Positions 28,994 to 45,941 are shown, numbered from the whole stretch's first letter. The stretch: DNA of 63,609 nucleotides, filler included, from Chthonomonadaceae bacterium (GCA_035650735.1; 5 parts of 5 records of this genome joined end to end with filler, not necessarily neighbours in it), one strand, 5' to 3'. A program made the numbers and translations. Notes: generated by a model not told the origin, from the letters alone.

Positions 28994-30352
28994 GCCCGCT
29001 ACTTCCTGCACGACGCCATGCGCGGCATAGACTACCTGCGCAGCCGTCCTGAGATAGACCCCGACCGCATCGGCGTGACCGGCAACTCCGGCGGCGGCAC
29101 GCAGACCTGCTTGATGATGCTGGCCGACCCGCGCATCGCCGCTGCCGCTCCCGGCACCTTTATCATGAACCGCGAGACCTATCTGCTTGCGGGCGGCGCG
29201 CAGGACGCCGAGCAGATCTGGCCCGGCTTTACCGCCGCAGGCTACGACCACGAGGACGTGCTGCTGGCGATGGTGCCGCGTCCGGTGCGCGTGCTGGCGG
29301 TGACCGGCGACTTCTTCCCCATTGAAGGCACGCGCCGCACGGTCGAGCGCAGCAAGCGGTTCTGGAAGCTCTATGGCAAGGAAGGCGACCTGGACCTGGT
29401 CGAAGATACCAGCACGCACCGCTACACGGAGAAGCTGGCCCGCGCCGCCGGAGAGTTCTTCGCCCGTCATCTGCTGGGCAAAGAAGCCTCCTTCGACGAT
29501 GCTAAGATCGCTCCCTTTGAGCCGTCGCGCCTCTGGTGTACGGCCTCCGGCCAGGTGCGCGGCGAGATCAAGGACGCCCTCACCGTGTTTGAGACTAACC
29601 GCGAGCGGGCACAGGCTCTGGCGCAGGAGCGTCACGCGCTGCCTGCCGCCGAGCAGCGGGAACGGGCCGTGCGGTGGCTGCGCGAGCGCGTGACCCGCCA
29701 CCGCAAGCCCTGCGACCTCAATCCCCGCTTCTATCACGCCGACCGCCTGGAGGAGATGACCGTCCAGATCGCGCTCTGGTGGGCGCAGGAGGGCCTGTTC
29801 AATCACGGCTACCTCTTCCGCCATTTCCAGCACGCCGACCGCGACCTGCCGGTGACGCTGGCGCTCTGGGAGGATGGCACGAACTCACTCTACCCGCACC
29901 TCGCATGGCTGCGGCGTACCTGTGAGCAGGGCCGCGCCGTCCTGGTGCTCGACGTCTCCGGCGCCGGCCCCCTGGCTCCGCGCCCCATCACCGCCGGCGA
30001 CCCGAAAGCGTTCTACGGCGTGATCCATAAGCTGGCTGACGACCTGATCTGGCTGGACGACGACCTGGCCTCCCTCCGAACCTATGACGTGTTGCGCGCT
30101 CTGGATATGGTCGCGCAGTGGCCGGGACTGGATGCCACGGACATCCAGGTCTACGCGTACGGTCGGCCAGGCATCTACGGGCGACTGGCGGCGGCGCTGG
30201 ATGCGCGTATCCGCAAGGTGGAGGTGGCGGAGGGCATTCGCAGCTACGCGGAGTGGGTGGAGGCGCGGCACTACGATGCGTACAATATCTACAGCATCCT
30301 CCTGCCCGGTATGCTGCGCTACTTCGACCTGCCAGAGCTCGAAAAACAATAA
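28994..30352 (+). CDS. Alpha/beta hydrolase, acetylxylan-esterase-like (5' partial)
   Basis: RGIDYLRSRPEIDPDRIGVTGNSGGG; second degenerate hydrolase domain. Confidence 0.8.
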   Translation, partial: ARYFLHDAMRGIDYLRSRPEIDPDRIGVTGNSGGGTQTCLMMLADPRIAAAAPGTFIMNRETYLLAGGAQDAEQIWPGFTAAGYDHEDVLLAMVPRPVRVLAVTGDFFPIEGTRRTVERSKRFWKLYGKEGDLDLVEDTSTHRYTEKLARAAGEFFARHLLGKEASFDDAKIAPFEPSRLWCTASGQVRGEIKDALTVFETNRERAQALAQERHALPAAEQRERAVRWLRERVTRHRKPCDLNPRFYHADRLEEMTVQIALWWAQEGLFNHGYLFRHFQHADRDLPVTLALWEDGTNSLYPHLAWLRRTCEQGRAVLVLDVSGAGPLAPRPITAGDPKAFYGVIHKLADDLIWLDDDLASLRTYDVLRALDMVAQWPGLDATDIQVYAYGRPGIYGRLAAALDARIRKVEVAEGIRSYAEWVEARHYDAYNIYSILLPGMLRYFDLPELEKQ

Positions 30353-30514
30353 TCCACAGATTACACAGATTAAAACCAAAGAAGAACACGGATGAGACGG
30401 ATTGGACGGATAACACGGATATGCAAGCCTCTTATCTGTTGCATCCGTGTCATCCGTTCAATCCGTGTTTAAGTTCTGGTTCTAATCTGTGGTAATCGGT
30501 GTAATCTGTGGATT
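30351..30514. repeat. Nested palindrome of 9-mer tandem units
   Basis: Outer AATCCACAGATTACAC / GTGTAATCTGTGGATT; inner ACGGAT units facing ATCCGT units. Confidence 0.85.
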
Positions 30515-30519
30515 CTTAA

Positions 30520-31452
30520 TCAGTTTGTCGTGGCGTGGAGGAAGCTCTTCAGGTCGCTCTCGCTGATGTAGGGCTCGCCGGGGGCGACGTTGTTGAGCTT
30601 GCCCTGGCGCATCCACTGCTCCAACTGGCCCACCAGAGCGAACAGGTGATCGAAAGAGTCCACGATGAACAGCAATGGCTGGTAGTGGTCTATCTCGAAG
30701 TACTGGTTGATCACCCACTCTAGCTGGATCGGGTAGCGCTGGACTTCCGGCGACTCGATGGCGTGCTCGATCTCGCCGTGGGAGCTAAGGAGGCCGCTGC
30801 CGTAGATCTTCAGCCCGTCCTGGCTGCGCATCAGGCCGAACTCGATGGTGAACCAGAAGAAGCGGGCCATCGCCTTAAAGATGCTGGACATGCGGTGGGT
30901 CTTCTCCTCCTCATCCTTCAGGCCCGCCATGATCTCAACTGCTGTGTGGGCGCAGTCGCCAAATCGGACCAGCGTATCGGCAAAGGCCGGGTCGGTGTGC
31001 ATCGGCACATGTCCGGCGATGTCGTGGAAAATATCCGGCTCCGGCAGGTAGTCTAGGTGGTTGACATCGCGAATGGTGATGGTGGTTGGGAACTCGCGAT
31101 TGCGCAGGCAGTCGAAGAAGATAAACGCGGGCACGTAGCCGCTGACGGCTTTGGCCTTGAAGCCCGTTAGCGGGCTGAGAAACCGATTAACATCCTCCAG
31201 GCGCGGCACGCGCTGCGGGTCCAGGCACAGACAGCTAATCCCGCGCAGAAAGTGCTCGTTGGCGTACTTTTGCCAGTGATCTTCCATGCGCGCGTAGAGC
31301 CGCCGCCATGCCTCGTGGTTCTCCTCCGAGTAGAGCTCGTAAGGCTGGTGGATATAGAGTTGCCCGTGACTGCGGGCCTCCTCGATAAAGGGCGCCTTTG
31401 TCGTGGTCAGACCGGCTGGCGCAGCGGTCTTTTCTGCGGTTACCTGTGCCAT
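30520..31452 (-). CDS. phhA: Phenylalanine 4-monooxygenase (biopterin-dependent aromatic amino acid hydroxylase)
   Basis: YLPEPDIFHDIAGHVP, WFTIEFGL, YGSGLLSS, YQP. Confidence 0.88.
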   Translation of the reverse strand: MAQVTAEKTAAPAGLTTTKAPFIEEARSHGQLYIHQPYELYSEENHEAWRRLYARMEDHWQKYANEHFLRGISCLCLDPQRVPRLEDVNRFLSPLTGFKAKAVSGYVPAFIFFDCLRNREFPTTITIRDVNHLDYLPEPDIFHDIAGHVPMHTDPAFADTLVRFGDCAHTAVEIMAGLKDEEEKTHRMSSIFKAMARFFWFTIEFGLMRSQDGLKIYGSGLLSSHGEIEHAIESPEVQRYPIQLEWVINQYFEIDHYQPLLFIVDSFDHLFALVGQLEQWMRQGKLNNVAPGEPYISESDLKSFLHATTN

Positions 31453-31464
31453 GTTACGCGCTCC

Positions 31465-33171
31465 TCATTTCTCTCGGAACTGCGTCCCCTTCCAGGCCGC
31501 AAAGAGCGGCTTGAGCTTGTTGCGCTGATACTTGCCCGTCGAAGTGACCGGGAAACTCTCTCCGAAGAGGACGACCTTCGGGCTTTTGGCGAACGGCAGC
31601 TTTTCCCGGCAGGCGCGCAGGATATGCTCCTCCGTCAGGTTCGCGTCCGCTTCCAACTGCACGTAGGCCCCGATCTCCTCGCCGTAAAAGTCATTTTCAA
31701 ATCCGACGGCCATCGCCGCCTTGACGCCGGGTATCGCGTTTAGGACCTCATCAATGTCGAAGGGCGCGTAGTTGATGCCGCCCCGGATGATCAGCTCCTT
31801 GATGCGCCCGGTAATGAAAAAGTAGGGCCGCCCGTCCTCTCCGGTGCGATAGAACCCCTCGTCGCCGGAGCGGAACCAGCCGTGCGCGAAGGTATCGCAG
31901 TTCGCGTCGGGCCGCTTGAAATAGTACTTCATCACGTTCTGGCCGCGAACGACGATCTCACCGCGCGCATCCTCCGGCAGCGGGTTGCCCTGCGCGTCGT
32001 GGATCGCCATCTCGTTGCAGGAGATGGGGCAGCCGATGGACGGAAAGCCGCATTCAAACATCCAGTGGCGGTAGGCCGCCTCGTCCTGATCGATAGGCAG
32101 GAAGCAGGAGTAGCAGGTCGTCTCCGACAGGCCGTAGCCGTGGACGATGCGCACGCCGAACATCTCGTAGAAGCGGCGGGCCAGCTCCACCGTCAGCGGC
32201 CCCGCCCCGCAGATGATATGCCGGAAGCGAGAGAGGTCCCACTGCGATAGGTCGTCGTGCCGCTCGCACAGGAACGCCAGCACCGTCGGCACGACGCTGA
32301 CCCAGGTACAGCCCTCTTCGGCCAGCGTCGGCCAGAACGCCTGCGCCCGGAACCGGCGGTTTAAGACCACGCTCCCGCCCGAATAGAGCGGCGTGACCAG
32401 CGTGACCACCGTGCCGTTGACGTGGTGGATGGGCAGCACGCACATCGCGCGGTCGTCCGGCCCGAAGCGATGCCATGCGGCGATGCTGTGCGCGTCCGCC
32501 AGCAAATTGGCTTGCTCCAGTACGACGCCCTTCGGCGCGCCCGTCGTTCCCGAAGTGTAGACGATCAGGCATTCCGTATCCGGCGAAAGGTCGGACGGCG
32601 GATCGAGCGGCGACTGCCGCGCCATCTCTGCCGCGAAATCCAGAAAGCCTGCGCGCGCCTGCCCGCCGACCTGCACGACCGCCATCTTCCGGGGCAATGC
32701 AGAGGCAATCGCCGCATAACGTTCCGCCTGCTCGTCCAGCACAAAGACGGCCTTCGCCTCCGAGTTGTTCAGGATATAGCCGATGCGCTCGTCGTCCTCG
32801 CCGATGTTGATGGGCACGACCGTCGCGCCCAGCAGCCACGCGCCGAAGTAGATGAGCACGGTGCGCGCGTCGTTGACCATCAGCGTCGCCACCCGGTCGC
32901 CCGTTTGCAGCCCCAGCGGCCCGGCCAGCAGCGCGGCGACACGGCAGGTCGCGTCGTAGAACTCAGCGTAGCTGTAGGCGCAGGCGCGTCCGTTCTCGTC
33001 GTAGAAGGTCAGAAAGTTCTTGTCCGGCGTATCCTGGGCGCGCTCGGCCAACAGCGCGCCGATATTGGCGTACAGAAACAGCCGATCTTCCCAGCGGCGG
33101 TCGGAAAGGCAGCGTGCGTGGTAGATGTTCGGCACGGTCTCCGGTGTGACGTTCTCAGCCATCTCGTTCAT
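31465..33171 (-). CDS. Acyl-CoA synthetase (AMP-forming)
   Basis: YTSGTTGAPKG, HGYGLSET, WFRSGD, TSTGKYQR; start MNEMAE after GGAGG. Confidence 0.9.
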   Translation of the reverse strand: MNEMAENVTPETVPNIYHARCLSDRRWEDRLFLYANIGALLAERAQDTPDKNFLTFYDENGRACAYSYAEFYDATCRVAALLAGPLGLQTGDRVATLMVNDARTVLIYFGAWLLGATVVPINIGEDDERIGYILNNSEAKAVFVLDEQAERYAAIASALPRKMAVVQVGGQARAGFLDFAAEMARQSPLDPPSDLSPDTECLIVYTSGTTGAPKGVVLEQANLLADAHSIAAWHRFGPDDRAMCVLPIHHVNGTVVTLVTPLYSGGSVVLNRRFRAQAFWPTLAEEGCTWVSVVPTVLAFLCERHDDLSQWDLSRFRHIICGAGPLTVELARRFYEMFGVRIVHGYGLSETTCYSCFLPIDQDEAAYRHWMFECGFPSIGCPISCNEMAIHDAQGNPLPEDARGEIVVRGQNVMKYYFKRPDANCDTFAHGWFRSGDEGFYRTGEDGRPYFFITGRIKELIIRGGINYAPFDIDEVLNAIPGVKAAMAVGFENDFYGEEIGAYVQLEADANLTEEHILRACREKLPFAKSPKVVLFGESFPVTSTGKYQRNKLKPLFAAWKGTQFREK

Positions 33172-33396
33172 CACAGCGCCTCCCCTCCAGGCAATATCTG
33201 AACGGTTTATTCCCTCTCTTGCAATGCTCTCCTGCTTTTCTATACGTGAGCAGAGGCGCGGAAATGCCATCCTTCAAAAGATGCCCTTCCTTCCCTGGCG
33301 AAAACCGGGCAAATCGCGGGAAGAAAAGGCGATAACGCTGCGTATTAGTAGGTAAGAAACGTTTTGATCAGGCAGGCCCGCAGGGTTCTTCCGCTC

Positions 33397-33513
33397 TCGG
33401 TAGCGGGCGAATAAATTCGCGGCAACAAAGGCACAAAACCCGCCTGCGCGGGTTCAGGTTTAGTCGGCGTAGGCCGACTTTGTGCCCTGGTTGCTGCGGC
33501 TTTAGCCGCCCGG
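33397..33513. repeat. REP-like doublet (GTAG type)
   Basis: GTAGCGGGCGAATAAATTCGC, AACCCGCCTGCGCGGGTT and AGTCGGCGTAGGCCGACT hairpins. Confidence 0.75.
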
Positions 33514-33561
33514 AAAGAAAAAGGACCCTGGCAAGCCCGGAAGCCTGCCGGGAGGTTGGAG

Positions 33562-34668
33562 ATGCCAGGGGATGCCTTGCCGCTTCGCCGCATTGACCAC
33601 GTCCGCTTCTTCGTCGGCAACGCGCGCCAATCGGCCTATTTCTATCGCAATGCATATGGGTTTGATGTCGTCGGCTATGCGGGCCTGGAGACGGGACTGC
33701 GCAATGAGGCAGGCTATGTGCTGCGCCAGGGAGACATCACCTTCGTACTCGTCTCGCCCCTGCGCGCCGACCATCCTGAGAACCGGCGGCTCGCCATTCA
33801 CGGCGACGGCGTGCAGGATATCGCGTTAGAAGTGGACGATGTTGCCAGGGCCTATGAGGTGACGACTGCGCGCGGAGCCGTCGGCGTCACGCCGCCCACC
33901 TGCCAGGAAGACGAGTACGGCGTCTACGAGTTCGCTACCATTCGCGCCTACGGCGACACGACTCATAGCTTTGTCAACCGCGACCGCTACAAAGGCGTCT
34001 TTGCCCCCGGCTACAAGCCCATCGAGCCTGACCGCTACAGCCCACGCACCTTCCATCCCGCCGGATTGGTCTCCATTGATCACATCGTCGCCAACGTGGA
34101 AGAGGGCAAGATGGAGGAATGGGTCCGCTTCTACGAGCGCGTCATGGGCTTTTCGCAGCTTGTCCACTTCGACGACAAGGACATCAGCACGGAGTACAGC
34201 GCCCTGATGTCGAAGGTGATGCAGGATGGGCAGGGGCGCATCAAGTTCCCCATCAACGAGCCAGCGCATGGACGGAGGAAGTCGCAGATCGAGGAGTACC
34301 TGGAGTTCTACGGCGGGCCGGGCGTGCAGCATATCGCCCTATCCACCAACCACATCATCGAGACGGTCACAGCGCTCCGCCACAACGACGTCTCGTTCCT
34401 GACGGTTCCGCCGACTTATTACGAGATGCTGCCGGAGCGGGTCGGCCAGATCGAGGAAGACCTGCACGAACTGGCCGAGTTGGGTATCCTGGTAGACCGC
34501 GACGACGAGGGCTACCTGCTGCAAATCTTCACCAAGCCCGTCGAGGATCGGCCTACCCTGTTCTTCGAGATCATCGAGCGGCACGGCTCCCGCAGCTTCG
34601 GCAAGGGCAACTTCAAGGCCCTCTTTGAGGCCATCGAGCGCGAACAGGCCCGCCGGGGAACGCTGTAG
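33562..34668 (+). CDS. hppD: 4-hydroxyphenylpyruvate dioxygenase
   Basis: IDHIV, GVQHIAL, LLQIFT, FFEII, FGKGNFKALF. Confidence 0.95.
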   Translation: MPGDALPLRRIDHVRFFVGNARQSAYFYRNAYGFDVVGYAGLETGLRNEAGYVLRQGDITFVLVSPLRADHPENRRLAIHGDGVQDIALEVDDVARAYEVTTARGAVGVTPPTCQEDEYGVYEFATIRAYGDTTHSFVNRDRYKGVFAPGYKPIEPDRYSPRTFHPAGLVSIDHIVANVEEGKMEEWVRFYERVMGFSQLVHFDDKDISTEYSALMSKVMQDGQGRIKFPINEPAHGRRKSQIEEYLEFYGGPGVQHIALSTNHIIETVTALRHNDVSFLTVPPTYYEMLPERVGQIEEDLHELAELGILVDRDDEGYLLQIFTKPVEDRPTLFFEIIERHGSRSFGKGNFKALFEAIEREQARRGTL

Positions 34669-34725
34669 CCGGGCATCGAGATACCCGTCTGGTCAGCATC
34701 CAGACGGGCCGGGATTGTAGCCAAG

Positions 34726-35445
34726 ATGAAGCTGGCACTGCCGACACATATCCCCTCGTTCCGGGATTTCTACGCCTTCGAGCAGCACGTGCGCAACGCA
34801 CGGAAGCGGCGTGGGCTGGAGATGGTTCCCGAATGGTACGATGCGCCCGCGTTCTACTTCTCCAATACGGCCTGCATCGTCGGGCCGAACGCGCCGATAC
34901 GCAAGCCGCCGGAGACAAACGAGCTAGATTATGAGTTAGAAATTGCGGTCGTCATCGGGAAGGAGGGCGGCGATATTCCGGTCTCCGAAGCCGACTCCTA
35001 TATCGCCGGATTCACCATCCTCAACGACTGGAGCGCGCGGGACCTCCAGCGGCGGGAGATGAAAGTCGGCCTCGGCCCGGCCAAAGGCAAGGACTTCGCC
35101 ACCAGCATCGGCCCCTATCTGGTGACGCCGGAGGAACTGGAAGATCGCCTGCTGCCCGACCGCAGCCGGGGCAATCGCTACGACCTGACCATGACAGCCC
35201 ATGTCAACGGGCGGGAGTATTCGCGCGGCAACGCGAAGGACATGCACTGGACGTTTGCCGAAATGATTTCCTACGCCTCCCGCAATACGGTGCTAAAACC
35301 CGGCGACCTGATCGGCTCCGGCACGGTCGGCACGGGCTGCATTACCGAGTTCCCGGAAGGCACGTATCCCTGGCTGCGGCCCGGCGATATGGTGCGGCTC
35401 GAAATTGAAAAGCTGGGCGCGCTGGAAAATCCCGTCGTGGAGTAG
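34726..35445 (+). CDS. Fumarylacetoacetate hydrolase family protein
   Basis: SFRDFYAFEQH, LDYELE, NDWSARDLQ, KGKDF, IGSGT. Confidence 0.9.
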   Translation: MKLALPTHIPSFRDFYAFEQHVRNARKRRGLEMVPEWYDAPAFYFSNTACIVGPNAPIRKPPETNELDYELEIAVVIGKEGGDIPVSEADSYIAGFTILNDWSARDLQRREMKVGLGPAKGKDFATSIGPYLVTPEELEDRLLPDRSRGNRYDLTMTAHVNGREYSRGNAKDMHWTFAEMISYASRNTVLKPGDLIGSGTVGTGCITEFPEGTYPWLRPGDMVRLEIEKLGALENPVVE

Positions 35446-35455
35446 GAGGGCAAAG

Positions 35456-36610
35456 ATGCCACGCTATGTAAAGTTGGGACAGGTTCCCCCCAAGCGGCAC
35501 ACGCAGTTTCGCAAGCCGGACGGCGCGCTCTACGCCGAGCAGGTCTTCGGGACGCGCGGCTTTTCCGGCATCGCGTCCATCCTGTACCACTGCCACCTGC
35601 CCACGCAGGTTGCGGAGTTCGAGTTTCTTGGAGAGGCGCGACCGGAACTGGCGCCCGAAGAGCCGCTGCGCCACCATCACCTCAAGACGCAGAAGATGAC
35701 GCCCTGCGGCGACCCGATCACCGGGCGCGTGCCGCTACTGGTCAATGAGGATGTCTCTTTCGGCCTCTGCTGCCCCGCCGAGACGATGAGCTACTACTAC
35801 AAGAACGCCGACGGCGACGATCTGCTGTTCGTCCACGAAGGGCGCGGGCGGCTGGAGACGATGTTCGGCACGCTGCCCTACCATGAGGGCGACTACCTGG
35901 TGATTCCGCGCGGCACGATCTACCGGGTCGTGGCCGAGTCGCCGGCAACCCGGATGCTGATTATCGAATCGGCCAGCGCCATTGAGGTGCCGCGCCGCTA
36001 CCGCAATGAGTACGGCCAGTTGCTCGAACATGCGCCCTACTACGAGCGCGACATTCGCGTACCGGAGTCGCTGGAGACGCACGACGAGCCGGGCCGCTTC
36101 GAGGTACGCATCAAGGCCAGGCAGCGCCTCACCGCCTACTTCTATGACTTCCATCCTCTGGATGTCGTCGGCTGGGACGGCTACCTCTATCCCTGGGCGT
36201 TCAACATCGGCGACTTCGAGCCGGTCACGGGCAGCATTCACCAGCCGCCGCCCTCGCATCAGACGTTTGAGGCGCATAACTTCGTCGTCTGCTCGTTTGT
36301 GCCCCGCCTGCTCGACTACCACCCGCAGGCCGTGCCTATCCCCTACAATCACAGCAACCTGGAGAGCGACGAGGTACTCTACTACGTCAACGGCAACTTC
36401 GCCAGCCGCCGGGGCATCGAGCAAGGCTCCATTACGCTGCATCCCTCCGGCCTGCCGCATGGCCCGCAGCCCGGCGCGGTGGAGGCCAGCTTGGGCCAGA
36501 CGCGCACCGAAGAACTGGCGGTGATGGTGGATACCTTCCGGCCCCTGCGCCTGACCCGCGCTGCCGTCGCCCTCGAAGACGGGCAGTACCCGTTCAGTTG
36601 GAAGAAATAA
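35456..36610 (+). CDS. hmgA: Homogentisate 1,2-dioxygenase
   Basis: NADGDD, HPLDVVGWDG, HQPP, PYNHSN, LHPSGLPHGPQPG. Confidence 0.92.
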   Translation: MPRYVKLGQVPPKRHTQFRKPDGALYAEQVFGTRGFSGIASILYHCHLPTQVAEFEFLGEARPELAPEEPLRHHHLKTQKMTPCGDPITGRVPLLVNEDVSFGLCCPAETMSYYYKNADGDDLLFVHEGRGRLETMFGTLPYHEGDYLVIPRGTIYRVVAESPATRMLIIESASAIEVPRRYRNEYGQLLEHAPYYERDIRVPESLETHDEPGRFEVRIKARQRLTAYFYDFHPLDVVGWDGYLYPWAFNIGDFEPVTGSIHQPPPSHQTFEAHNFVVCSFVPRLLDYHPQAVPIPYNHSNLESDEVLYYVNGNFASRRGIEQGSITLHPSGLPHGPQPGAVEASLGQTRTEELAVMVDTFRPLRLTRAAVALEDGQYPFSWKK

Positions 36611-36857
36611 ACCACCCGCTGCGCTAGAGGCACGGAGACACGGAGGAAAAGCCACACGGAGAAAGACAAAGACAAAAGCCTTTGGACAGGATGAACGGGA
36701 TTAACTGGATTTCAATCACACAGAGAAGCAAGGCTTGTCTGTCTTTCCCTAATCCCGTAAATCCTGTTAATCCTGTCTCCTTTTGCTTTTCTCTTTCTCT
36801 TTTTATTTTTCTCCGTGTGTCCTCCGTGTCTCCGTGCCTCTAGCGCAGCGGGTGGTT
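36610..36857. repeat. Nested palindromic MITE-like element, copy 2
   Basis: Same 20-bp terminal IR and left arm as 22184-22401. Confidence 0.9.
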
Positions 36858-36881
36858 CCTATCGCCTTGAGGAGGCGTTTC

Positions 36882-37544
36882 TTGTCCGCAGATGACTTTC
36901 TCGGCATTGACCCGGCGGAACTCTCCCGCGCCGACGCGCACCGGCTGCTGCTGCACTGCGTCGCGCCGCGCCCCATCGCCTTTACCTCAACGCTGTCGCT
37001 AGAGGGCGTGCCCAACCTGTCGCCGTTCAGCTACTTTATCGCGGGCGGCGCCAACCCGCCCTCGGTCGCCATCTCCCCGCTGACCGACCGCACCGGCCAA
37101 CCGAAGGACACGCTGCGGAACATCCAGGCGACGGGCGAGTACGTCATCAATGTCGTAACTTATGGTATGCGGGAGAAGATGAACCACGCCTCCGCCGAAT
37201 TTCCCTATGGCGTCAATGAGTGGGAGGAGGTCGGCTTCACGCCTGCACCGACGGTGAAAGTCAAGCCTGCCCGCGTGCTGGAAAGCCCGCTGGCGATAGA
37301 GTGCCGCCTGTATCAAATCGTCCCGCACGGCAGCGGGCCGCTCGCTGCCAACTACGTCATCGGCGAGGTCGTCTATTTTCACGTCTCCAGGCAGCTTTTG
37401 GAGGGGGAGAAGCTCGACGCCCGCCGCGTGGACTACATCGCCCGCATGGGCGCGGATTGGTACGCCCGCGTTACCCCGGAGGTAATGTTTGAGATGCCTC
37501 GCCCGCCGAGGATTGAGAAGTATCCGCCAGAAAGCGGGCAATGA
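36882..37544 (+). CDS. Flavin reductase-like (DIM6/NTAB-type) protein
   Basis: VAPRPIAF, NLSPFSYF, KDTLRNI, IARMG; TTG start after GAGGAGG. Confidence 0.85.
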   Translation: MSADDFLGIDPAELSRADAHRLLLHCVAPRPIAFTSTLSLEGVPNLSPFSYFIAGGANPPSVAISPLTDRTGQPKDTLRNIQATGEYVINVVTYGMREKMNHASAEFPYGVNEWEEVGFTPAPTVKVKPARVLESPLAIECRLYQIVPHGSGPLAANYVIGEVVYFHVSRQLLEGEKLDARRVDYIARMGADWYARVTPEVMFEMPRPPRIEKYPPESGQ

Positions 37545-37605
37545 GTAAACGGGGACATGAGTTCATGGGTTAATCCCTGCCCCGTTTGTTTATCGTCCCA
37601 TTGAT

Positions 37606-38979
37606 CTATATTCGCTCGAAATGCGCGGTGAAGTGGCGGAGGAAGGGAGCCTGATAGACGATGCGCAGGCCGCGAAGGGTGTCCCGGCGGGCAAAAGTCT
37701 CCAGAATCACTTCGCCCAGGTAGTCCACATGGCTCTGCGTGTAGACGCGGCGCGGGATGGCGAGACGCACCAGGTCCATTGAGGGGAAGATTTCGGCGCC
37801 GGTTTCCGGGTCGGGCTTGCCAAACATCACCCCGCCGATCTCCACGCCGCGCACGCCGCCGATCTCGTAGAGGGCGCAGACCAATGCCTGCCCCGGATAC
37901 TGCTCGATGGGGATGTGGGGCAGGAAGGCGCGGGCGTCTATGTAGATGGCGTGCCCGCCGGGCGGCTCGACGATCTTGACGCCGCCCTCCCGCAGTTCCC
38001 GCGCAAAGTACTCGATGCAGGCGTGCCGGTACTCTAAGTAGCGCTCGTCCAGCACCTCGTTCAGGCCGACCGCCAGCGCCTCCAGGTCGCGCGCCGCCAG
38101 CCCGCCGTAGGTCGGGAAGCCCTCCGTCAGGATGAGCAGGTTGCGCGCCTGCTCCGCCAGCTTGCCGTCGTTCATGGCGAGGAAGCCGCCGATGTTGGAC
38201 AGCCCGTCCTTCTTGCCGGAGAAGGTCGCCCCGTCACAGTAGGAAAACATCTCTTGAGCGATCTCGCGCGGCGTCTTATCGGCATAGCCCGGCTCGCGCA
38301 TCTTGATGAAATAGGCGTTCTCGGCGAAGCGGCAGGCATCCAGGAAGAAAGGAATGCCGTGCCGGTGCAGCGTCTCGCTGACATCGCGGATATTGGCCAT
38401 CGAGACTGGCTGCCCGCCGCCCGTATTGTTGGTCACCGTTAACATGCCGAGCGGGATATGCTCCGCGCCCATGCGCGCAATTAATGCCTCTAGTTTGGCT
38501 ACGTCCAGGTTGCCCTTGAACGGGTGCTGCGCCGACGGGATTTTGCCCTCGTCAATGACGAGGTCCAGCGCCTCCGCGCCGGAGTACTCGATGTTGGCGC
38601 GCGTGGTATCGAAGTGGTTGTTGCTCGGCACGACCCTGCCCGCCCCGCCGACCAATTCGAATAGGATACGCTCCGCCGCGCGCCCCTGATGCGTCGGGAT
38701 GATATGCGTGAATCCCGTTAGCTGCTGCACGACCCGCTCAAACTTGAAGAAACTGCGGCTGCACGCATAGCTCTCATCGGCGACCATCATCGCGCTCCAC
38801 TGCGCCGCCGACATCGCCGCCGTGCCGCTGTCGGTTAGCAGGTCAATGAGGACGTCCTCGGCGTGGATGAGGAAGGGGTTGTAGTGGGCGCGGCGCAGTA
38901 TCTCCGCCCGCTCCTCCGGCGTGGTGAAGCGGATCGGCTCGACCATTTTGATCTTGAACGGCTCGATGATGGTTCGCAT
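37606..38979 (-). CDS. tnaA: Tryptophanase
   Basis: DLLTDSG, HQGRAAE, SGKKD (PLP lysine), RLAIPRRVYT; HFDTT, VEIG and LRHFT match tryptophanase rather than tyrosine phenol-lyase. Confidence 0.85.
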   Translation of the reverse strand: MRTIIEPFKIKMVEPIRFTTPEERAEILRRAHYNPFLIHAEDVLIDLLTDSGTAAMSAAQWSAMMVADESYACSRSFFKFERVVQQLTGFTHIIPTHQGRAAERILFELVGGAGRVVPSNNHFDTTRANIEYSGAEALDLVIDEGKIPSAQHPFKGNLDVAKLEALIARMGAEHIPLGMLTVTNNTGGGQPVSMANIRDVSETLHRHGIPFFLDACRFAENAYFIKMREPGYADKTPREIAQEMFSYCDGATFSGKKDGLSNIGGFLAMNDGKLAEQARNLLILTEGFPTYGGLAARDLEALAVGLNEVLDERYLEYRHACIEYFARELREGGVKIVEPPGGHAIYIDARAFLPHIPIEQYPGQALVCALYEIGGVRGVEIGGVMFGKPDPETGAEIFPSMDLVRLAIPRRVYTQSHVDYLGEVILETFARRDTLRGLRIVYQAPFLRHFTAHFERI

Positions 38980-39246
38980 TCCAGTTCCTCCCTTCCCTCC
39001 GTTTGATCATGGCCCTTTTGTACTGGCCCCCACCCCTTCATCCCCTCCCCCAACAACAGGGGAGGGGAGAGTTCACGCCTGGCTTGACCGTTCCCCCTCT
39101 CCTAAAATTGGGGGTCGCAAGGCGGAGGCCCGAACCATTGCAGGGCCGACCCTAGCAGTCCGTTGTAGCCCCGACCCTGGCAGTGGGATGAAGGGGTGGG
39201 GGCTTCTCCCCTCTCCTTGAGAAGGAGAGGGGACGGGGGTGAGGGC

Positions 39247-40182
39247 CTACCCCTTGAGCGCGCCGACGGTGATGCCGCGCGTCAGGCGCTCTTGCAGGAA
39301 GATGTAGACCAGCAGCGTGGGCAGCATGGCGATGACCAGGCCCGCAAACAGCAGGCCGAAGTCGCTCTTGTACTGCGCCTGCATACTGATGCTGGCCAGG
39401 CCGAGCGGCAGCGTTTTTAGTTCGTCGCTGTTGAGGAAGACCAGCCCGAACAGGTACTCGTTCCAGAGGCCGAGGAAGTTAAAGATGGCGACCGTCACCA
39501 GGCCGGGCTTGCCAAGCGGCATCATCACCGAGAAGAAGATGCGGTACTCGCTCGCCCCGTCCAGCATGGCCGCTTCCCGGACCTCGTTGGGCAGCGTGCG
39601 GAAGAAGGCGGTCAGCACAAAGACCGTGAACGGCAGGCTGGCGGCCACGTAGATAAGGATTAATCCGGCGTGCGTGTCGTGGAGGGAGAAGACCGCGCGG
39701 CCCAGATGCAGAGATTGCGTTACCGGGCTGAACGCCTTCGTCAGCCACTCGCTCATGTCGGAATACTGGAAGAAGAGCGGGATAAGGATAAGCTGCATCG
39801 GGATGAGCAGGCCGCTCAGAAACAGAGTGGAGATGAAGCCGCGCCCGAAGAATTCGAAGCGGGCCAGCACGTAGGCGGCCATGCTCCCGAAGAGCAGGAT
39901 CAGCGCCAGGCTGATGCCGACGACCTTGAGGCTGTTGAGGAAGTAGCGGCTGAAGTGGCTCCCGATCCAGGCTTTGTTATAGTTCTTGGCGAGCGTCTGC
40001 GCGCTCTGCCGGTTGGGTGCGGTGATGACCTTCGGCAAGCCGAACGGGTTCTGGTAGATCTCCTGCGTGCTTTTGGCGCTCGTGTAGACGACCCACAGCA
40101 TCGGCAGGACGACGGCGGCCAGGTATGCCACCAGCAGGGCATATTTGAAGCCGGAACCGATTCGGTGCAGCGCGTCGGTCAT
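39247..40182 (-). CDS. Carbohydrate ABC transporter permease
   Basis: EAAMLDGAS EAA loop, WNEY, GALKG end. Confidence 0.92.
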   Translation of the reverse strand: MTDALHRIGSGFKYALLVAYLAAVVLPMLWVVYTSAKSTQEIYQNPFGLPKVITAPNRQSAQTLAKNYNKAWIGSHFSRYFLNSLKVVGISLALILLFGSMAAYVLARFEFFGRGFISTLFLSGLLIPMQLILIPLFFQYSDMSEWLTKAFSPVTQSLHLGRAVFSLHDTHAGLILIYVAASLPFTVFVLTAFFRTLPNEVREAAMLDGASEYRIFFSVMMPLGKPGLVTVAIFNFLGLWNEYLFGLVFLNSDELKTLPLGLASISMQAQYKSDFGLLFAGLVIAMLPTLLVYIFLQERLTRGITVGALKG

Positions 40183-41063
40183 CAGTACTCCAGCCTTTCG
40201 CGGGTCAGCAGGCGGCGGCTGATCAGAGTCGCCAGCAGCACCAGGAGAAACAGCAGCACGGCGATGGCCGTCCCGTAGCCGATGTTGTACTCCTCAAAGA
40301 CTTTGGAGTACATCAGCGTGGACATCGTGTGCGTGTTGGGAGAGGGACGCCCGTTCTCCATGACCCAGATCGCGTCGAAGAACTTCAGCCCGCCGATGAT
40401 GAGGAAGATGATGCCCGTCGTCAGCACATCCCACATCAGCGGCAGCGTGATATGGCGGAACAGCCCCGCCGAACTCGCCCCATCCAGCCGTGCCGCCTCG
40501 TAGAACGACTCCGGGATGTTCTCCATCGCCGCCAGGAACAGCACCAGATAGAATCCCGTCGCGCTCCAGACGATCATCGGCACCAGCGCCCAGAGCAGGT
40601 GGCTGCTCTCCGCAAAGGCGATAGGCTGCGTCCGGTGGAACCATGATTTCAGCAGGTTGTTGAGCAAGCCCGCTCCGCCGGGGCTGTAGATGAGAATCCA
40701 GAGCAGCGCGATGGCGACGGAACTGATGATATTGGGGAAGAAGAAGGCGATGCGGAACAGACGTGCGCCCTTGATGCGCTGATGGATGACGTAGGCGAAA
40801 AACAGGGCCAGAACCAGGATGATGGAACCGGGCACGACCGTCAGGAAGGCGTTATGATAGAGCGCGGGCAGGAAGTCAGAGCCGCGCGCCAGGATTTTCT
40901 GAAAGTTGGCCAGGCCGATCCAGGTCGGCTTGCCCAACCCGTCCCAGCGCAGCAGGCTGTAGCGGAAGGCGTTAAAGGCCGGGATCAGCACAAAGACGGC
41001 GTACAGCGCCAGCGGCGGGCCGAGGAAGGTGGCGATAAACAGTTTTTGGTCGCGCCGTCTCAT
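40182..41063 (-). CDS. Carbohydrate ABC transporter permease
   Basis: GLANF, EAARLDGAS, HITLPL, GYGTAIA. Confidence 0.92.
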   Translation of the reverse strand: MRRRDQKLFIATFLGPPLALYAVFVLIPAFNAFRYSLLRWDGLGKPTWIGLANFQKILARGSDFLPALYHNAFLTVVPGSIILVLALFFAYVIHQRIKGARLFRIAFFFPNIISSVAIALLWILIYSPGGAGLLNNLLKSWFHRTQPIAFAESSHLLWALVPMIVWSATGFYLVLFLAAMENIPESFYEAARLDGASSAGLFRHITLPLMWDVLTTGIIFLIIGGLKFFDAIWVMENGRPSPNTHTMSTLMYSKVFEEYNIGYGTAIAVLLFLLVLLATLISRRLLTRERLEY

Positions 41064-41080
41064 CTCAATTGGGCACTCCT

Positions 41081-41304
41081 TATGACCTCACCCCCTCTCG
41101 CGGCAGGGTTTAGCCTGCCGCTGTGGGGCCTACGGCCCCCTGCCCGCCTGCACGGGCAGAAGACCTGGGGAGAGCAGAAGCCCTCTCTCCAGGTCTTCTG
41201 CTCTCCCCTCTCCCGCAACGTGGGAGAGGAGGTTAGGGGGTGAGGACGCCTCTACTCCCTACCCCCTATACCCTACCCCCTGCACGAGGAGCCGGGGTGA
41301 GGTT
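41081..41304. repeat. Composite intergenic repeat flanked by 14-bp direct repeats
   Basis: AATTGGGCACTCCT at 41067-41080 and 41305-41318; interior holds hairpins and a heptamer array. Confidence 0.8.
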
Positions 41305-42619
41305 AATTGGGCACTCCTCGCTTCGGCGGCTTGTAGATTTCCGGGTCGCGCCGTATCTCGTCCGCCGCCGCTTCCAATCGCTGAGCGAACTGTTCCGGAG
41401 TCGTCTTGGCGGAGAGCAGATCGGCGAGGGCGTCCTGCAAGGTGGCTTTGGTAAAGGTCAGGTACAGCCCGCTCAGGCGGTCGGAGAAGATGCGTGAACG
41501 GCGTTCCATGATGTCCACCGCGCTTTGCAGATCGGGCGAGATCGGGATGCCTTTGACCGAGTTGCGCACGGGCGAGAGGGTATCGAGCCGCTGGATATAG
41601 GAGTGCGCGCTCTCCAGGCTCGTCATGTACTTGAGGAAGTCCAGCGCCTCCCTGGGGTGCTTGGCTTCCGAGAAGACAAAGAAGTTCTCGCCGCCTCCGG
41701 CGAAGATGGCGCGCGGGTCGCCCTTGCCGCCCTCCACCGTCGGCATGGCGAAGCAGGCCATCTCGAAGCCCGGCGGAATCGTGTTCTTCTGCTCGTTCTT
41801 CAGCCACAGCCCGCACCAGACCAGGGCCGCCCGCCCGTTGACCCATTCTAGCTGGCTCTCCGTGTGGGTCATCGCCATCGCGCCGGGCTGGAAGTACTTC
41901 GTGGACATCTCCTGCAAGAGCCGCGCCGCATGGACGAACTCCGGGTCCAGAAACGCGCCCGGCTCAAGGTCCTGCATCGCGTACCACCGCTCGAACGGTA
42001 CGAGCCGCTGGTAGATGCTCAGCAGCGTCGGCCAGGCGTAGGTGGGATACTTGCCCTGGAAGGCTAGCGGCGCGACCCCTGCCGCCTTGATCTGCTCGCA
42101 CAGGCGCATATACTCCGACCAGGTTTTGGGCACTTTCCAGCCGTGCTCACGAAACTGCCGTTTGTCGTACCAGCAGACCCAGGCGCTCAGGTTCGTGGGC
42201 ATGGCGTAGGACTTGCCCTGATACTGGTAGTCGGAGAGGACGCCGCGCTCCAGCGAGTCACGCCAGGAGATTTGCTGGCCGTAGGCGGGCGTATCCAGGG
42301 CCTCATCCAGCGGATAGAGCTTCCCGGCCACGATGAGCTTCCAGACGGGCAGCGTGCAGTTGGCGAGGTCGGGCGGGTTGCGGCGCAGGATACGCGGCTT
42401 GAGTTTCTCATCCACGCGCGGATCGCCCCAGAGGTTGATGCGAATGTTGGGGTGCAGTTTCTCGTACTGGCGGGCAACGCTCTTGTGCCAGTCAATGCCG
42501 TAGCCGCCCTCAAAGACGGCGACTTCGAGGGTGATCTGCGCGCCGGGTTCGTCGCGCTCCAGAGAGCAGCCCGCACAGAGCAAGCCGATCAGCCCGATTA
42601 TCAGAGCGGTCTTGCGCAT
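41303..42619 (-). CDS. Sugar ABC transporter solute-binding lipoprotein
   Basis: Lipobox LCAGC, FEGGYG, PKTWSE, CGLWLKNE (NgcE-like). Confidence 0.88.
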   Translation of the reverse strand: MRKTALIIGLIGLLCAGCSLERDEPGAQITLEVAVFEGGYGIDWHKSVARQYEKLHPNIRINLWGDPRVDEKLKPRILRRNPPDLANCTLPVWKLIVAGKLYPLDEALDTPAYGQQISWRDSLERGVLSDYQYQGKSYAMPTNLSAWVCWYDKRQFREHGWKVPKTWSEYMRLCEQIKAAGVAPLAFQGKYPTYAWPTLLSIYQRLVPFERWYAMQDLEPGAFLDPEFVHAARLLQEMSTKYFQPGAMAMTHTESQLEWVNGRAALVWCGLWLKNEQKNTIPPGFEMACFAMPTVEGGKGDPRAIFAGGGENFFVFSEAKHPREALDFLKYMTSLESAHSYIQRLDTLSPVRNSVKGIPISPDLQSAVDIMERRSRIFSDRLSGLYLTFTKATLQDALADLLSAKTTPEQFAQRLEAAADEIRRDPEIYKPPKRGVPN

Positions 42620-42625
42620 GGCTGT

Positions 42626-43381
42626 CTATTCGCCATGCAGCGGGAACTCTCCTGTTATCCCGCAACCCAGCATCCGATGCAGGATAGGGTGCTTTTCTTC
42701 GGGGATGCAGGCGAGCCATTCCTGCCAGGTCTGGCATTGAATAATATGGCATATCGCTTCCCAACCAACTAGATTCTAGCTCGTCGCCAAGACAGGCCAC
42801 GCTTGCGCCAAACCCCTCAGGGTAAGCCACTCCACCAAAAACCATGGCAATGCGCCTGGTTCGCGCTTTCTTCAACCTGGAAATATCCAGCTTGGGCTGA
42901 CTGTTTCGGTGCGCGCGTATTCTAAGATGGGCATATTCCGTCAGACCTTGCTCCACAAGTACGTGCTGAGAGGCGAGAAAGGCCAGCATCTCATCCACCC
43001 ATAGCTGTTGCCTTAGTCCCTTTCTGCGCACCGTCACGCGATGGCACATCTCATGCGCAAGGGAAGCTTTCTTCTGCTCGGCCTTCTGCCCGGCACAGCG
43101 GTAACTTCTCAGTATGACAATGTCGTATTCTCGCAGCAAGCGATTTCGAGTACAGGCATTGCGAGCTGGAACAATCTCTGCACGACACTGGCCTCCTATA
43201 AAAATGAAGCTCGCAGCAAGCGATTTCGAGTACAGGCATTGCGAGGGCCATTGAGAAGTATATAGGGCCAACTTGCATCCTCAGGGACGCCAAACCACTG
43301 AACGCATAGCTCATAGGCCCGGTGGCCAAAGATTTCTAACTTCCTATCCTCAATGGGCGAGTGAGGCCAGTTGAACGCCAT
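42626..43381 (-). pseudogene. HEXXH-motif protein interrupted by an 80-bp insertion and a probable second frameshift
   Basis: MAFNWP start after GAGGAAAAG; LAHEMCH..VDEM; frame restored by removing 43130-43209; probable further shift near 42772. Confidence 0.7.
43130..43245. CRISPR. Two identical 36-bp repeats with a 44-bp spacer (CRISPR-like mini-array, no cas genes in window)
   Basis: CTCGCAGCAAGCGATTTCGAGTACAGGCATTGCGAG at 43130-43165 and 43210-43245; the repeat is certain, the CRISPR origin is inferred. Confidence 0.45.
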
Positions 43382-43447
43382 CTTTTCCTCAAAAAAACTG
43401 CAAGTATCGTTAGCCAACCGGACGACAGGCACGTCGCATCGTCCCGA

Positions 43448-43558
43448 TACGGCAGAAAGGAAGCATTCGGCAGCCGAGAGATTGTCTTTGGCAATATAGG
43501 TGGCGTGATTGTAGAGGTCGGTCTGGGCCTCTTCCCGACGATGAATGCTGCGCGCCAT
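43448..43558 (-). pseudogene. ParE/RelE toxin N-terminal fragment
   Basis: AQTDLYNHATYIAKDNLSAAECFLSAV then loss of similarity; directly after an antitoxin. Confidence 0.7.
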
Positions 43559-43561
43559 GCG

Positions 43562-43855
43562 TCAGGCTTTCTGGCCTGCGGCCTCACGCGCCGCCTGATG
43601 CAGAGCGGCCCAATCCTGCTTGGTCATCTCACGCTTAGGCGAGTTCAGGCCGGCAAGGAGGAGTTCTTCGAGGTGATCCTGGTCGCGTATCTCGCTTGGC
43701 CGCTCCGGAGCAGCCCCCTTGAGCGTCTCTTCGTCGGGAGAGAGATCGTTTAAGATGAGCTTGGCAAGCCGCAAGCGCTCTTCGGCAGGCAAAGGCTTAA
43801 TCGTCTGGTCATAGAGTTCGTAGACAGTCATCTTCTGGGTTACCTCCGCGTCCAT
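43562..43855 (-). CDS. ParD-like antitoxin
   Basis: C-terminal LEELLLAGLNS..EMTKQDW; upstream of the ParE fragment. Confidence 0.65.
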   Translation of the reverse strand: MDAEVTQKMTVYELYDQTIKPLPAEERLRLAKLILNDLSPDEETLKGAAPERPSEIRDQDHLEELLLAGLNSPKREMTKQDWAALHQAAREAAGQKA

Positions 43856-43914
43856 TCAACCTAAATTATAACATAGGAGGCTTGAGCCTGAATCCTAGGC
43901 GTACCGCCTGCTTG

Positions 43915-45261
43915 TCAGCCGCCAGCGTCGGAGGAAGGCGAGGCGAGGAGAGCGTCGCGCTCGTCTATCGAGACGGCGGCCTGGTCAGAGAGAGGCTCGC
44001 GCCGCACGATGAGGGCCAGCAGCCCTCCCAGGAAGATCGTTCCCGCCAGGGCCAGCAGTCCGACGGCGAAGCTGTGCGTGGTGTCCCTGAGCCAGCCCAT
44101 CACGTAAGGCCCGACGAAGCCGCCCAGGTTGCCCACCGAGTTGATGAGCGCAATGCCTCCGGCGGCGGCGGCGCTGCCCAGAAAGGCGGTCGTCAGTCCC
44201 CAGAAGGGGCCGAGCATTCCCCAGACGCCGAGCGTTGCCACCGTAAAGGCTAACAGAATGGGCACCGGGCTATGGAGCAAGGCGCTGAGCACCAGTCCCA
44301 CGCAGGCGGTGAGGGCGGAGAGGGTAACGTGCCAGCGCCTCTCGCGCGTGCGGTCCGAGTGCATCCCGATAAGCACCATGCCGACGGTGGCGGCGATATA
44401 CGGGATCGCCGCCAGCCAGCCGACCTGCGCCGTCTGTTCTTTGCCCAGGTGGAAGGCTTTCTGGATGATCTGCGGCAGCCAGAAGGTGATGCCGTAGGAG
44501 GTCAGGGCGAGCGTGAAGTAGAGCAGGCAGAAGAGCCAGACCGCCGGATGGGTGAACGCTTCCCGCAGGGTAAAGTGGCGCTGTATCCGGCTCTGGCGCT
44601 CGGCCTCCAGCCGCCCGAGTATCCAGGCTTTCTCGTCGGCAGACAGCCAGCGCGCCGTCTGCGGGCCATCCGGCAGGTAGGCCAGCACGACAAAGCCCAG
44701 CAGCACAGCCGGTAAGCCCTCCAGCAGAAAGAGCCACTGCCAGCCTGCCAGCCCATGCCCGTTTACGGTGAGCAGCAGGCCGGAAAGCGGGCTGCCGATG
44801 ACCTGCGAGATGGTTCCCGCCGTCATAAACAGGGCCACAACCCGCGCCCGCTCCGCCGCCGTGAACCAGTAGGTCAGATAGAGGATGATGCCGGGAAAGA
44901 AGCCCGCCTCGGCCAGCCCCAGCAGGAAGCGCAGCCCATAGAAGCTGGCCTTATCGCGCGTGAAGAGCATGGCCATTGCGATCAGGCCCCACGAGATCAT
45001 GATGCGCGCGATCCAGCGCCGCGCCCCCACGCGCTCTAAAATCAGGTTGCTGGGCACTTCAAACAGGAAATAGCCGAGGAAAAAGATGCCCATGCCCGCG
45101 CCAAAGACGGTATCGCTGAGGTGCAGGGCTCTGCCCATCTGGAGCTTGGCGAAGCCGACGTTGACGCGATCCAGATAGGCAACGACATAGAGGATAAACA
45201 GAAACGGGATCAGTCGCCGGGTGGCCTTACCAAGAACGACACGTTCGGAAATCGCATTCAA
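43915..45261 (-). CDS. MFS transporter, ACS family
   Basis: YLDRVNVGFA, FEVPSN, GARRWIARI, EAGFFPG, INSVGNLGGF. Confidence 0.93.
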   Translation of the reverse strand: MNAISERVVLGKATRRLIPFLFILYVVAYLDRVNVGFAKLQMGRALHLSDTVFGAGMGIFFLGYFLFEVPSNLILERVGARRWIARIMISWGLIAMAMLFTRDKASFYGLRFLLGLAEAGFFPGIILYLTYWFTAAERARVVALFMTAGTISQVIGSPLSGLLLTVNGHGLAGWQWLFLLEGLPAVLLGFVVLAYLPDGPQTARWLSADEKAWILGRLEAERQSRIQRHFTLREAFTHPAVWLFCLLYFTLALTSYGITFWLPQIIQKAFHLGKEQTAQVGWLAAIPYIAATVGMVLIGMHSDRTRERRWHVTLSALTACVGLVLSALLHSPVPILLAFTVATLGVWGMLGPFWGLTTAFLGSAAAAGGIALINSVGNLGGFVGPYVMGWLRDTTHSFAVGLLALAGTIFLGGLLALIVRREPLSDQAAVSIDERDALLASPSSDAGG

Positions 45262-45480
45262 AGCTTATGTCCCCCTTTTCGCCTGTCACACCGACTCCGG
45301 ACCTCAACCCCGTCTCCTCTCCCAATTCACCTAACCCCCCGTCCCCCTTCCCTACAAGGGAAGGGAGGGACACGACCTGAGACGGTTGTAGCCCTCATCC
45401 CCGGCCCTTCTCCCTGCAAGGGAGAAGGGGGAAGAGAAGCCAGCATGACCTCTGCCCACGCAGGTGGGCAGCGGGCCTCG

Positions 45481-45699
45481 CTAGGTGTCGCAAGGCGGAG
45501 GGCTGTGGCAAGGCAGAGGCAGGGGCCGTAACCCTGCCGACCCTGGCAGTCCGTTGAGCGGCGTCCCTTGCAGTCAGCGGGCCTGGCTAGGCGGAGATCG
45601 CCAGGCAGAGCCGCGAACCGTTGAGCGGCGTCCCTGGCAGTCGAGCGTGCGCAGTTCCGACCCTGGCAGCGCCCCACAGCGGCAGGGTTTAGCCTGCCG
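45481..45699. repeat. Long mosaic of the modular repeat family
   Basis: Modules shared with 1-46, 26544-26677, 39111-39184, 41101-41130. Confidence 0.8.
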
Positions 45700-45941
45700 G
45701 ACGAACGGCCCCCAGAGGCCGCACGCCCCGCACCATCAGTCCCGCACGGCCCAGCGCGTAGCCGCCAATCTGCTTGTTCAGTGGGTCGCGGTAGCCGGCG
45801 CGCACCAGCCTCCGCCACCTATCCGTCCGGTTGATCTCCGAGCCGTGCACCGTGTAGATGCTGAAGGCCACCACGTCCCCAGCTTTCGCCGGACAGGAAA
45901 CGGCATCCTGCAAGCGGTACTTGTCGGTGGGCAGATGGGGC
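45689..45941 (-). CDS. PhyH-family dioxygenase, C-terminal part
   Basis: AKAGDVVAFSIYTVHGSEINRT; cut by contig end. Confidence 0.7.

Follow-up and report, generated by a model that had tools for sequence, protein, structure and literature searches.

The closest described counterpart of the locus reported here is off-target spacer integration by the type I-E system of Escherichia coli, which gives rise to 'neo-CRISPR' loci (Nivala, Shipman and Church 2018, as described in 10.1101/148544, PMC7054753 and PMC6698737). As summarised in papers that cite this work, the events required over-produced Cas1-Cas2, and the resulting loci have been proposed as a route by which new arrays start. In vitro, Cas1-Cas2 from Pyrococcus furiosus is described as carrying out full-site integration at non-CRISPR sites with G or C 30 bp apart (Grainy et al. 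2019, PMC6698737), the conserved inner positions of which include G1, T2, A6 and A12. Off-target acquisition is also named among the proposed origins of isolated, or orphan, arrays (10.64898/2026.04.27.721218, its reference 24).

Off-target integration is known from over-expression and test-tube work, and its natural frequency and cost are largely unknown; in the main text of the open-access papers and preprints that we searched, no report emerged of single-spacer ectopic units occurring by the dozen in a natural genome. Isolated arrays carry repeats that resemble cas-adjacent ones, and the target duplications of insertion sequences and transposons are usually 2-15 bp long and surround an element that brings ends and genes of its own.

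A repeat-insert-repeat unit within a putative peptidase gene

The DNA analysed, referred to here as the window, is a 63,609-nucleotide stretch from a soil-dwelling Chthonomonadaceae bacterium (GCA_035650735.1) that consists of five contig pieces joined by runs of N, with contig C163 occupying positions 28994-45941. An initial annotation had drawn attention to two exact 36-bp copies around 44 unrelated bp, and both copies were found where it had placed them, at 43130-43165 and 43210-43245, separated by a 44-bp insert (43166-43209) with a G+C content of 45.5%. No third copy of the 36-mer is present in the window at up to three mismatches, two matches arose in none of 100 dinucleotide shuffles, and the whole 6.52-Mb genome contains the same two copies and no more; the rest of the window holds no further unit of this repeat-insert-repeat kind. 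The 6-bp inverted ends reported for the 36-mer (CTCGCA/TGCGAG) and its terminal ATTGCGAG can both be read directly from the sequence, whereas the two ends of the insert carry no inverted repeat. A second copy of the insert was found neither in the contig, where local matches reach 11 nt at best, nor in the genome (best match 15 nt), such that a template switch from adjacent DNA, a possibility raised at the outset, is left with no local origin. Tandem duplication or slippage was rejected on the same grounds, as the insert is not homologous to its flanks.

The unit lies within a gene on the minus strand that can be followed in three pieces. The N-terminal coding part (43246-43381, ATG at 43379-43381) reads MAFNWP...LLNGP and aligns with the N-termini of six homologues, and the copy that comes first in gene orientation (43210-43245) ends this piece with the residues RNACTRNRLLR, after which the spacer-like insert shifts the frame and a TAG at 43198-43196 enters the upstream frame. 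The second copy (43130-43165) starts the middle piece with the same residues, and is followed by EYDIV...LGDEL (42786-43129) in a frame that differs from that of the N-terminal part, with HEMCH at 43041-43055. A second frame break falls at approximately 42776-42785, where the homologous C-terminus switches frame, and homologue alignment delineates a C-terminal part in a third frame (NLVGWEAICH...PLHGE, 42626-42775, stop at 42626-42628) that ends 6 nt before the start (42619) of a solute-binding-protein gene. The present N-terminal and C-terminal frames of the gene coincide by chance. In agreement with the initial annotation, RNACTRNRLLR is encoded in both open reading frames (ORFs), as the minus-strand translations of 43245-43210 and 43165-43130 are the same: the upstream ORF (43558-43196) contains the first copy and then meets its TAG stop within the insert, while the downstream ORF (43271-42510) encodes these 11 residues from the second copy in the other frame. 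The upstream ORF begins 59 codons ahead of the homologue-supported start, and neither those 59 residues nor a 97-residue ORF at 43562-43855 belongs to a Pfam or NCBIfam family.

A word-index protein search returned no relatives of the interrupted gene; HMMER, run in full against 1.84 billion representatives, did recover the family, with 103 relatives at E ≤0.001, the best of which is 59% identical. The family, which carries an HExxH motif, has no relative in Pfam, NCBIfam or PDB, some of its longer members contain TPR repeats, and we refer to the interrupted gene as a putative peptidase gene. A search with the downstream piece among 68 genomes of the same order gave matches in 14, the present genome (G000) included, and each of the seven homologous loci that we read comprises a single gapless ORF with the pattern ...WFGxPxDxxWPY..G-xxxCxRNxLLR-xYxIVI...HExxH.... 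The six aligned library homologues are all continuous over the site as well, and when aligned with them the three pieces from the window tile the full protein, the first two overlapping solely in the duplicated residues. Removal of 80 bp, one copy plus the insert, had been predicted to rejoin MAFNWP..LLNGP-RNACTRNRLLR-EYDIV..LAHEMCH in one frame, and these comparisons bear this out. The continuity of the homologues, together with the overlap of the pieces in RNACTRNRLLR, shows that the 80 bp is a derived insertion, accompanied by duplication of a 36-bp target, into a gene that had once been continuous, and that the single 36-mer is ancestral coding sequence. A search of genome_contigs for the 36-mer did not recover a single-copy (empty) allele at the DNA level.

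The insertion adds 80 nt, a two-base shift, and brings in the premature TAG, which is as far as the earlier claim of a gene knockout holds. Because the gene contains a second frameshift, the insertion is no more than a candidate cause of its death. None of the 103 library matches to the middle-frame piece extends beyond query residue 163, and most stop near residue 132. The broken gene is contained in a stretch of low G+C content (42620-43560, 49-56% compared with 63% for the genome) for which no DNA-level match was found among 40 related genomes; DNA-level sharing with related genomes is limited to the neighbouring transporter gene.

The junctions in public sequencing runs

The locus was compared with Logan contigs, which are built from 31-letter words, from four public runs belonging to four studies. 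In the two runs that are possible source samples, X2 and X4, a 104-nt piece that reads from within one copy, through the insert, into the other has a depth of 10.2 and 8.99, respectively, its flanks have depths of 9.95 and 7.41 in X2 and 10.4 and 15 in X4, and the 36-nt piece has approximately double the depth (22.8 in X2 and 17.2 in X4). Contigs from two further studies, neither of them flagged as a possible source, cover 43152-43329 (X7), and 43130-43239 and 43023-43159 (X8), with no differences from the window. As 31-letter words are shorter than the 36-bp copy, Logan contigs can neither show nor exclude an uninterrupted allele. The unit is thus present in real reads, insertion and duplication included, and at the second frame break the contigs of X2 and X4 are also identical to the window.

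An assembly artefact might be suspected in a genome assembled in 224 contigs with a contamination of 3.36%. However, the same junctions occur in the k=31 contigs of all four runs, two of them not flagged as sources, and a 77-kb JGI contig matches the locus at 100% identity across 3032 bp, although it is possibly from the same sample and so may not be independent. That independent contigs share these junctions makes an artefact very unlikely, and it is the explanation to which we give the least credence of all those considered here.

Resident CRISPR equipment compared with the unit

The initial annotation attributed the insertion to host adaptation machinery, and adaptation genes are indeed present in this genome, which is rated 97.64% complete. 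The sole cas1 and cas2 found lie at C93:7957-9416, where cas1 matches TIGR03641 (type I-B) at 431 bits and cas2 matches TIGR01573. The gene order on this contig is cas2, cas1, a putative CRISPR-associated protein (TIGR02619), csm4, csm3, a partial cas10, cas3, cas5b, cas7b, an ORF without assignment, and cas6. The cas-adjacent array comprises 80 identical 29-nt repeats and 79 native spacers of 32-41 nt, of which 34 are 36 nt, 24 are 37 nt and 14 are 38 nt long. A search of five relatives for a second cas1 yielded no lead: one possesses a cas1, and the same-genus genome has none.

Neither length of the unit matches this array. The 36-bp duplication differs from the resident repeat (29 nt in 80 of 80) and from the 28-30-nt repeats of mini-arrays, and the 44-bp insert is longer than every native spacer. 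Over its whole length, the 36-mer is also no closer to the repeats of this genome than a random sequence, since the 13 matches that it shares with resident repeats are at the level of chance (95th percentile of random 36-mers, 14).

Several other CRISPR-like loci were observed. Type I-E-like palindromic mini-arrays, in which repeats measure 28-29 nt and spacers 32-33 nt, are located at C109:6231-6370, C126:9900-10024, C1:10060-10193 and C135:1248-1383, and there are further small arrays with 30-nt repeats; both kinds are unaccompanied by cas genes, and searches of the genome returned no type I-E cas1. Two decayed arrays, with two and three copies (C119:60732-60843 and C59:13744-13932), have repeats of 36-38 nt that end in ATTGAAAC or CTGAAAC and are not accompanied by cas genes. 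They may be what remains of a further CRISPR system, or else off-target units that arose where the sequence resembled a repeat.

The layout of the unit and the ATTG-type 3' end of the 36-mer would also suit a working orphan mini-array, in which a single spacer lying between two genuine repeats yields a guide or regulatory RNA, as the initial annotation had offered by way of alternative. This is difficult to reconcile with a 36-mer that is ancestral coding sequence, conserved at the protein level in homologues, that is unlike the resident repeats and that has no Rfam family at E up to 5, or with the position of the unit inside a gene, and we consider such a mini-array highly improbable, ahead only of the assembly artefact. 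Nor was there any sign of growth into an array, contrary to the proposal that the insertion had seeded one.

A genome-wide population of units

Exact direct repeats of at least 24 bp form 99 pairs at start-to-start spacings of 60-79 bp, compared with 1-11 such pairs per 10-bp bin elsewhere up to 400 bp. We defined a unit set as exact repeats of at least 27 bp at spacings of 57-85 bp, which gave 89 pairs; these counts hinge on the exact-repeat thresholds, and a mismatch-tolerant scan recovers more, older units but repeat families too. In 73 of the 89 pairs, spread on 61 contigs, the repeat is found just twice in the genome, and the remaining 16 pairs lie within multi-copy elements, two three-repeat mini-arrays, or a coding tandem repeat. 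The units fall into three size classes: repeats of 28 bp enclosing 33 bp; repeats of 29-33 bp (mode 30) enclosing 35-39 bp, hereafter the 30-bp class; and repeats of 35-40 bp enclosing 33-40 bp, a class of 17 pairs that includes the present unit with its insert of 44 bp. Inserts of 44 bp occur in 4 of the 89 pairs, and that of the present unit is the longest in its class. In their geometry, the two smaller classes correspond to array types present in the genome itself. A control stretch of 400 kb from a same-family genome (G016) contained no pairs, where 5.5 would be expected at the density of the present genome, and 188 kb of the same-genus genome contained one doubtful pair.

A multi-copy element with an imperfect 40-nt direct repeat at 73-nt spacing has an identical 33-nt filler in every copy (C40:5610, C131:39082, C138:15800, C187:4221, C194:15420, C195:17215, C206:65662 and others), and could represent an integration scar that a mobile element went on to spread. 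Several integration sites lie within a short dispersed repeat family, GGTCGGGCCTGCAATGG-like (e.g. C38:32120, C120:27850 and C28:62651), and some inserts copy another repeat family, TAGGGTGTAGGGG-like.

Open flanks of at least 70 codons in the same frame on both sides are found at 18 of the 89 units and at 1989 of 3000 random sites. Reading-frame-like sites are therefore under-represented threefold among the units, by selection or by site choice. Genes have nonetheless been split elsewhere: Pfam searches identified a divided DUF2961 gene, one piece of which spans profile positions 1-144 and the other 119-235, and a divided zinc alcohol dehydrogenase gene. Five units keep the frame, adding a multiple of three bases and no stop (L072:2001-2096, L075:2001-2098, L078:2001-2113, L080:2001-2099 and L083:2001-2095); the ORFs around them stay open over 271-620 codons, and three of these ORFs contain Pfam domains (HINT/intein, glyoxalase and glycosyl hydrolase 20).

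The remnant of a mobile element that made a long target duplication and was later almost wholly deleted might leave a similar structure, and a few insertion-sequence groups are known to make unusually long, variable target duplications. In common with transposon target duplications, the unit has a direct duplication of the kind left by staggered cuts, but it consists of 36 bp around 44 bp that are unique in the genome and lack inverted repeats at their ends. Since the inserts also differ in all 73 two-copy units, we judge a mobile-element remnant to be quite improbable, if somewhat less so than a mini-array.

Target-site motifs

The 114 ends of the 30-bp class share a motif of 2.06 bits, compared with 0.32 ± 0.06 for random sets. 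G is found at position -3 in 60 and at -2 in 69 of these ends, G or C at +1 in 89, and A at +12 in 67, whereas T at +1 is rare (6 of 114). The 34 ends of the 35-40-bp class likewise reach 2.05 bits, compared with 1.08 ± 0.22 and a maximum of 1.96 in 500 random sets, with a different motif that approximates C|CTTGCAAC when read inward from either end. Permutation tests detected no strand asymmetry of the ends in the 30-bp class (p 0.18) or the 35-40-bp class (p 0.82), and dyad-symmetric motifs of this kind are as a two-fold symmetric integrase would give. A single shared orientation of the units, considered because six CCG flanks all lie on the left, was rejected on these p values and again by leave-one-out analysis, in which 26 of 56 favoured the + orientation.

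To score the present unit, a motif was built from the other 16 units of the 35-40-bp class. Its ends, CTCGCAGC and the opposite-strand CTCGCAAT, reach 3.05 and 5.84 bits, values attained by 1.7% and 0.04% of random ends, respectively, and the summed end score is equalled by 1 in 8000 random 36-bp sites. From this fit it follows that the 6-bp inverted ends of the 36-mer are two inverted copies of the class target motif, and that the present unit belongs to a 17-unit class with a shared target-end motif. On the earlier notion of a repeat-mimicking target, the results point both ways: likeness over the whole length is at chance, and what the site has is the end motif common to the 35-40-bp units.

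Two further explanations for features of the 35-40-bp class were rejected. A fixed total length, with the duplication compensating for the insert, is not indicated (r -0.27, p 0.29, n=17); in the 30-bp class, duplication and insert lengths have an r of -0.39, as chance extension of the exact repeat would give. Import of the units with foreign DNA is similarly disfavoured, as their flanks have a G+C content of 60.0%, compared with 63.1 ± 3.4 at random sites, and fall under the 5th percentile at the present unit (55.9%) and three others alone. This mostly normal composition indicates that the 35-40-bp units arose in the lineage.

The class also bears on the possibility that the insert is break-repair filler or the product of a template switch, with the duplication arising as long overhangs were filled in, or by slippage involving the 6-bp inverted ends. 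The inverted ends of the 36-mer are in keeping with such a process, as is a gene that is in decay, with its second frameshift. On the other hand, the insert has no local template, its best matches being 11 nt in the contig and 15 nt in the genome, and repair filler would leave 17 like-sized units with a common end motif unexplained. We regard this explanation as improbable, although it ranks above the mobile-element remnant.

Sources of the inserts

Full-length copies elsewhere in the genome were found for 8 of the 89 inserts, six belonging to the 30-bp class and two to the type I-E-like class. CCG stands directly 5' of the source copy in four of the eight (P ~6e-5 for a CCG frequency of 0.031), and overlaps it by one base in two more. 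Among the 79 native spacers none matches the genome, apart from one 19-nt hit. Self-copies would be lethal in a working array and presumably harmless at a site that is never processed, which fits these counts.

Four of the eight source copies are on contig C15 (L023-L025: 2024, 4215, 17136 and 32865), a 43.5-kb contig that encodes DNA polymerase III alpha, metabolic genes and two restriction-modification systems (EcoRV-like and BsoBI-like). This gene content rules out a mobile element and is that of ordinary chromosome, and the inserts therefore include the cell's own DNA; C15 may be a hot spot for spacer capture.

No full-length copy at another genomic position was found for any of the 17 inserts in the 35-40-bp class. 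The 44-mer of the present unit has no source in phage records (best E 1 to 4) or plasmid records and no exact match in IMG/VR, its 32-nt core is absent from genome_contigs, and it is absent at up to three mismatches from 67 other genomes of the order; the one metagenome match is the same locus, in the JGI contig. Exact matches in IMG/VR were also lacking for four other inserts, two each from the 35-40-bp and 30-bp classes. The protospacer envisaged for the 44-mer was thus not recovered from host, phage, plasmid or IMG/VR sequences, and with no source found, a PAM cannot be read for the present unit.

Discussion

Dozens of units in this genome have a geometry, PAM-flanked sources and site motifs that fit CRISPR adaptation, and we consider the present unit to be probably the result of ectopic spacer integration of the Cas1-Cas2 type. 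Under this model, a CRISPR-type spacer integrase, whether Cas1-Cas2 or a close functional equivalent, would have made two staggered attacks on opposite strands, 36 bp apart, at a chromosomal site outside any CRISPR array; a 44-bp prespacer would have been joined at the site, and gap repair would then have duplicated the 36-bp target. Because no insert of the 35-40-bp class could be traced, the CRISPR nature of this class rests on analogy with the other classes, by which we infer a Cas1-Cas2 origin for the class and hence for the unit.

The main rival is an as yet undescribed non-Cas process, namely another staggered-cut integrase or a repair pathway that adds approximately 70-80 nt, in which case the 35-40-bp class would be merely CRISPR-like. 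Such a process would account for the failure to find a second cas1, the poor fit of 36/44 to the resident array, the lack of a traceable source for any of the 17 class inserts, and an end motif that differs from that of the 30-bp class. However, the architecture of the class is identical to that of the two classes bearing CRISPR signatures, its insert lengths (33-40, with one of 44) overlap those of native spacers, duplication length does not trade off significantly against insert length, its inserts do not copy DNA of the genome itself, and the genome has decayed arrays with 36-38-nt repeats. On balance, a non-Cas process seems unlikely, though less so than the other rivals weighed above.

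If ectopic spacer integration is the correct reading, the question of which enzyme was responsible follows. Candidates could include a second system with 36-38-nt repeats that has been lost or was not assembled, or the resident type I-B system using a different ruler. A motif and spacing unlike those of the 30-bp class argue for a different enzyme, whereas the presence of one cas1 alone in a 97.64%-complete genome argues against it. The type I-E-like arrays that lack a type I-E cas1, together with the decayed 36-38-nt arrays, make a lost or unassembled second system plausible. It is possible, albeit doubtful, that the 35-40-bp class derives from a non-resident integrase, be it an extinct CRISPR adaptation module that survives in its scars alone, or an enzyme akin to spacer integrases but outside the known cas1 family, with specificity for inverted CTTGCAAC-like ends; if so, the genome would preserve a datable trace of no fewer than three separate integrases, each a natural insertional mutagen. 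The attribution to host adaptation machinery made by the initial annotation is accordingly upheld in part: the insertion, the cas1-cas2 pair, the 89 pairs of CRISPR geometry and the CCG-flanked sources favour it, while sizes of 36/44 that are unlike the 29/32-41 array, and a 44-mer with no source, do not.

The genome provides a natural sample of 73-89 events, with dyad-symmetric end motifs that differ between size classes, and shows that fragments of the cell's own chromosome, picked beside CCG, get integrated. With at least three split genes and a threefold deficit of reading-frame-like sites, CRISPR adaptation would appear to be a measurable insertional mutagen in this organism, and its scars may record adaptation modules since lost from the lineage. 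The present unit is a clean test case in this respect, being a single well-defined site whose empty state is known.

Compared with the systems described to date, the unit has most in common with the neo-CRISPR loci of E. coli. As those loci are portrayed in the citing papers, both involve a spacer-sized insert outside arrays and a repeat-length duplication, with Cas1-Cas2 as the proposed agent; in contrast to them, the events reported here are natural, occur in every run examined, number 73-89 and fall into three size classes, and the present unit has a duplication that differs in length from the resident repeat and lies inside a gene. Relative to the P. furiosus off-target sites set out in PMC6698737, the 30-bp class similarly favours G or C at position 1 (89 of its 114 ends) and A at position 12 (67 ends), whereas the present unit has a 36-bp spacing and a C|CTTGCAAC-like end motif, and is a natural chromosomal event rather than the outcome of a plasmid assay. 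Finally, like the isolated arrays discussed in 10.64898/2026.04.27.721218, for which off-target acquisition is a proposed origin, these units lie away from cas genes. Unlike isolated arrays, each has as its repeat a unique host sequence, which in 73 of the 89 pairs is found nowhere else in the genome.
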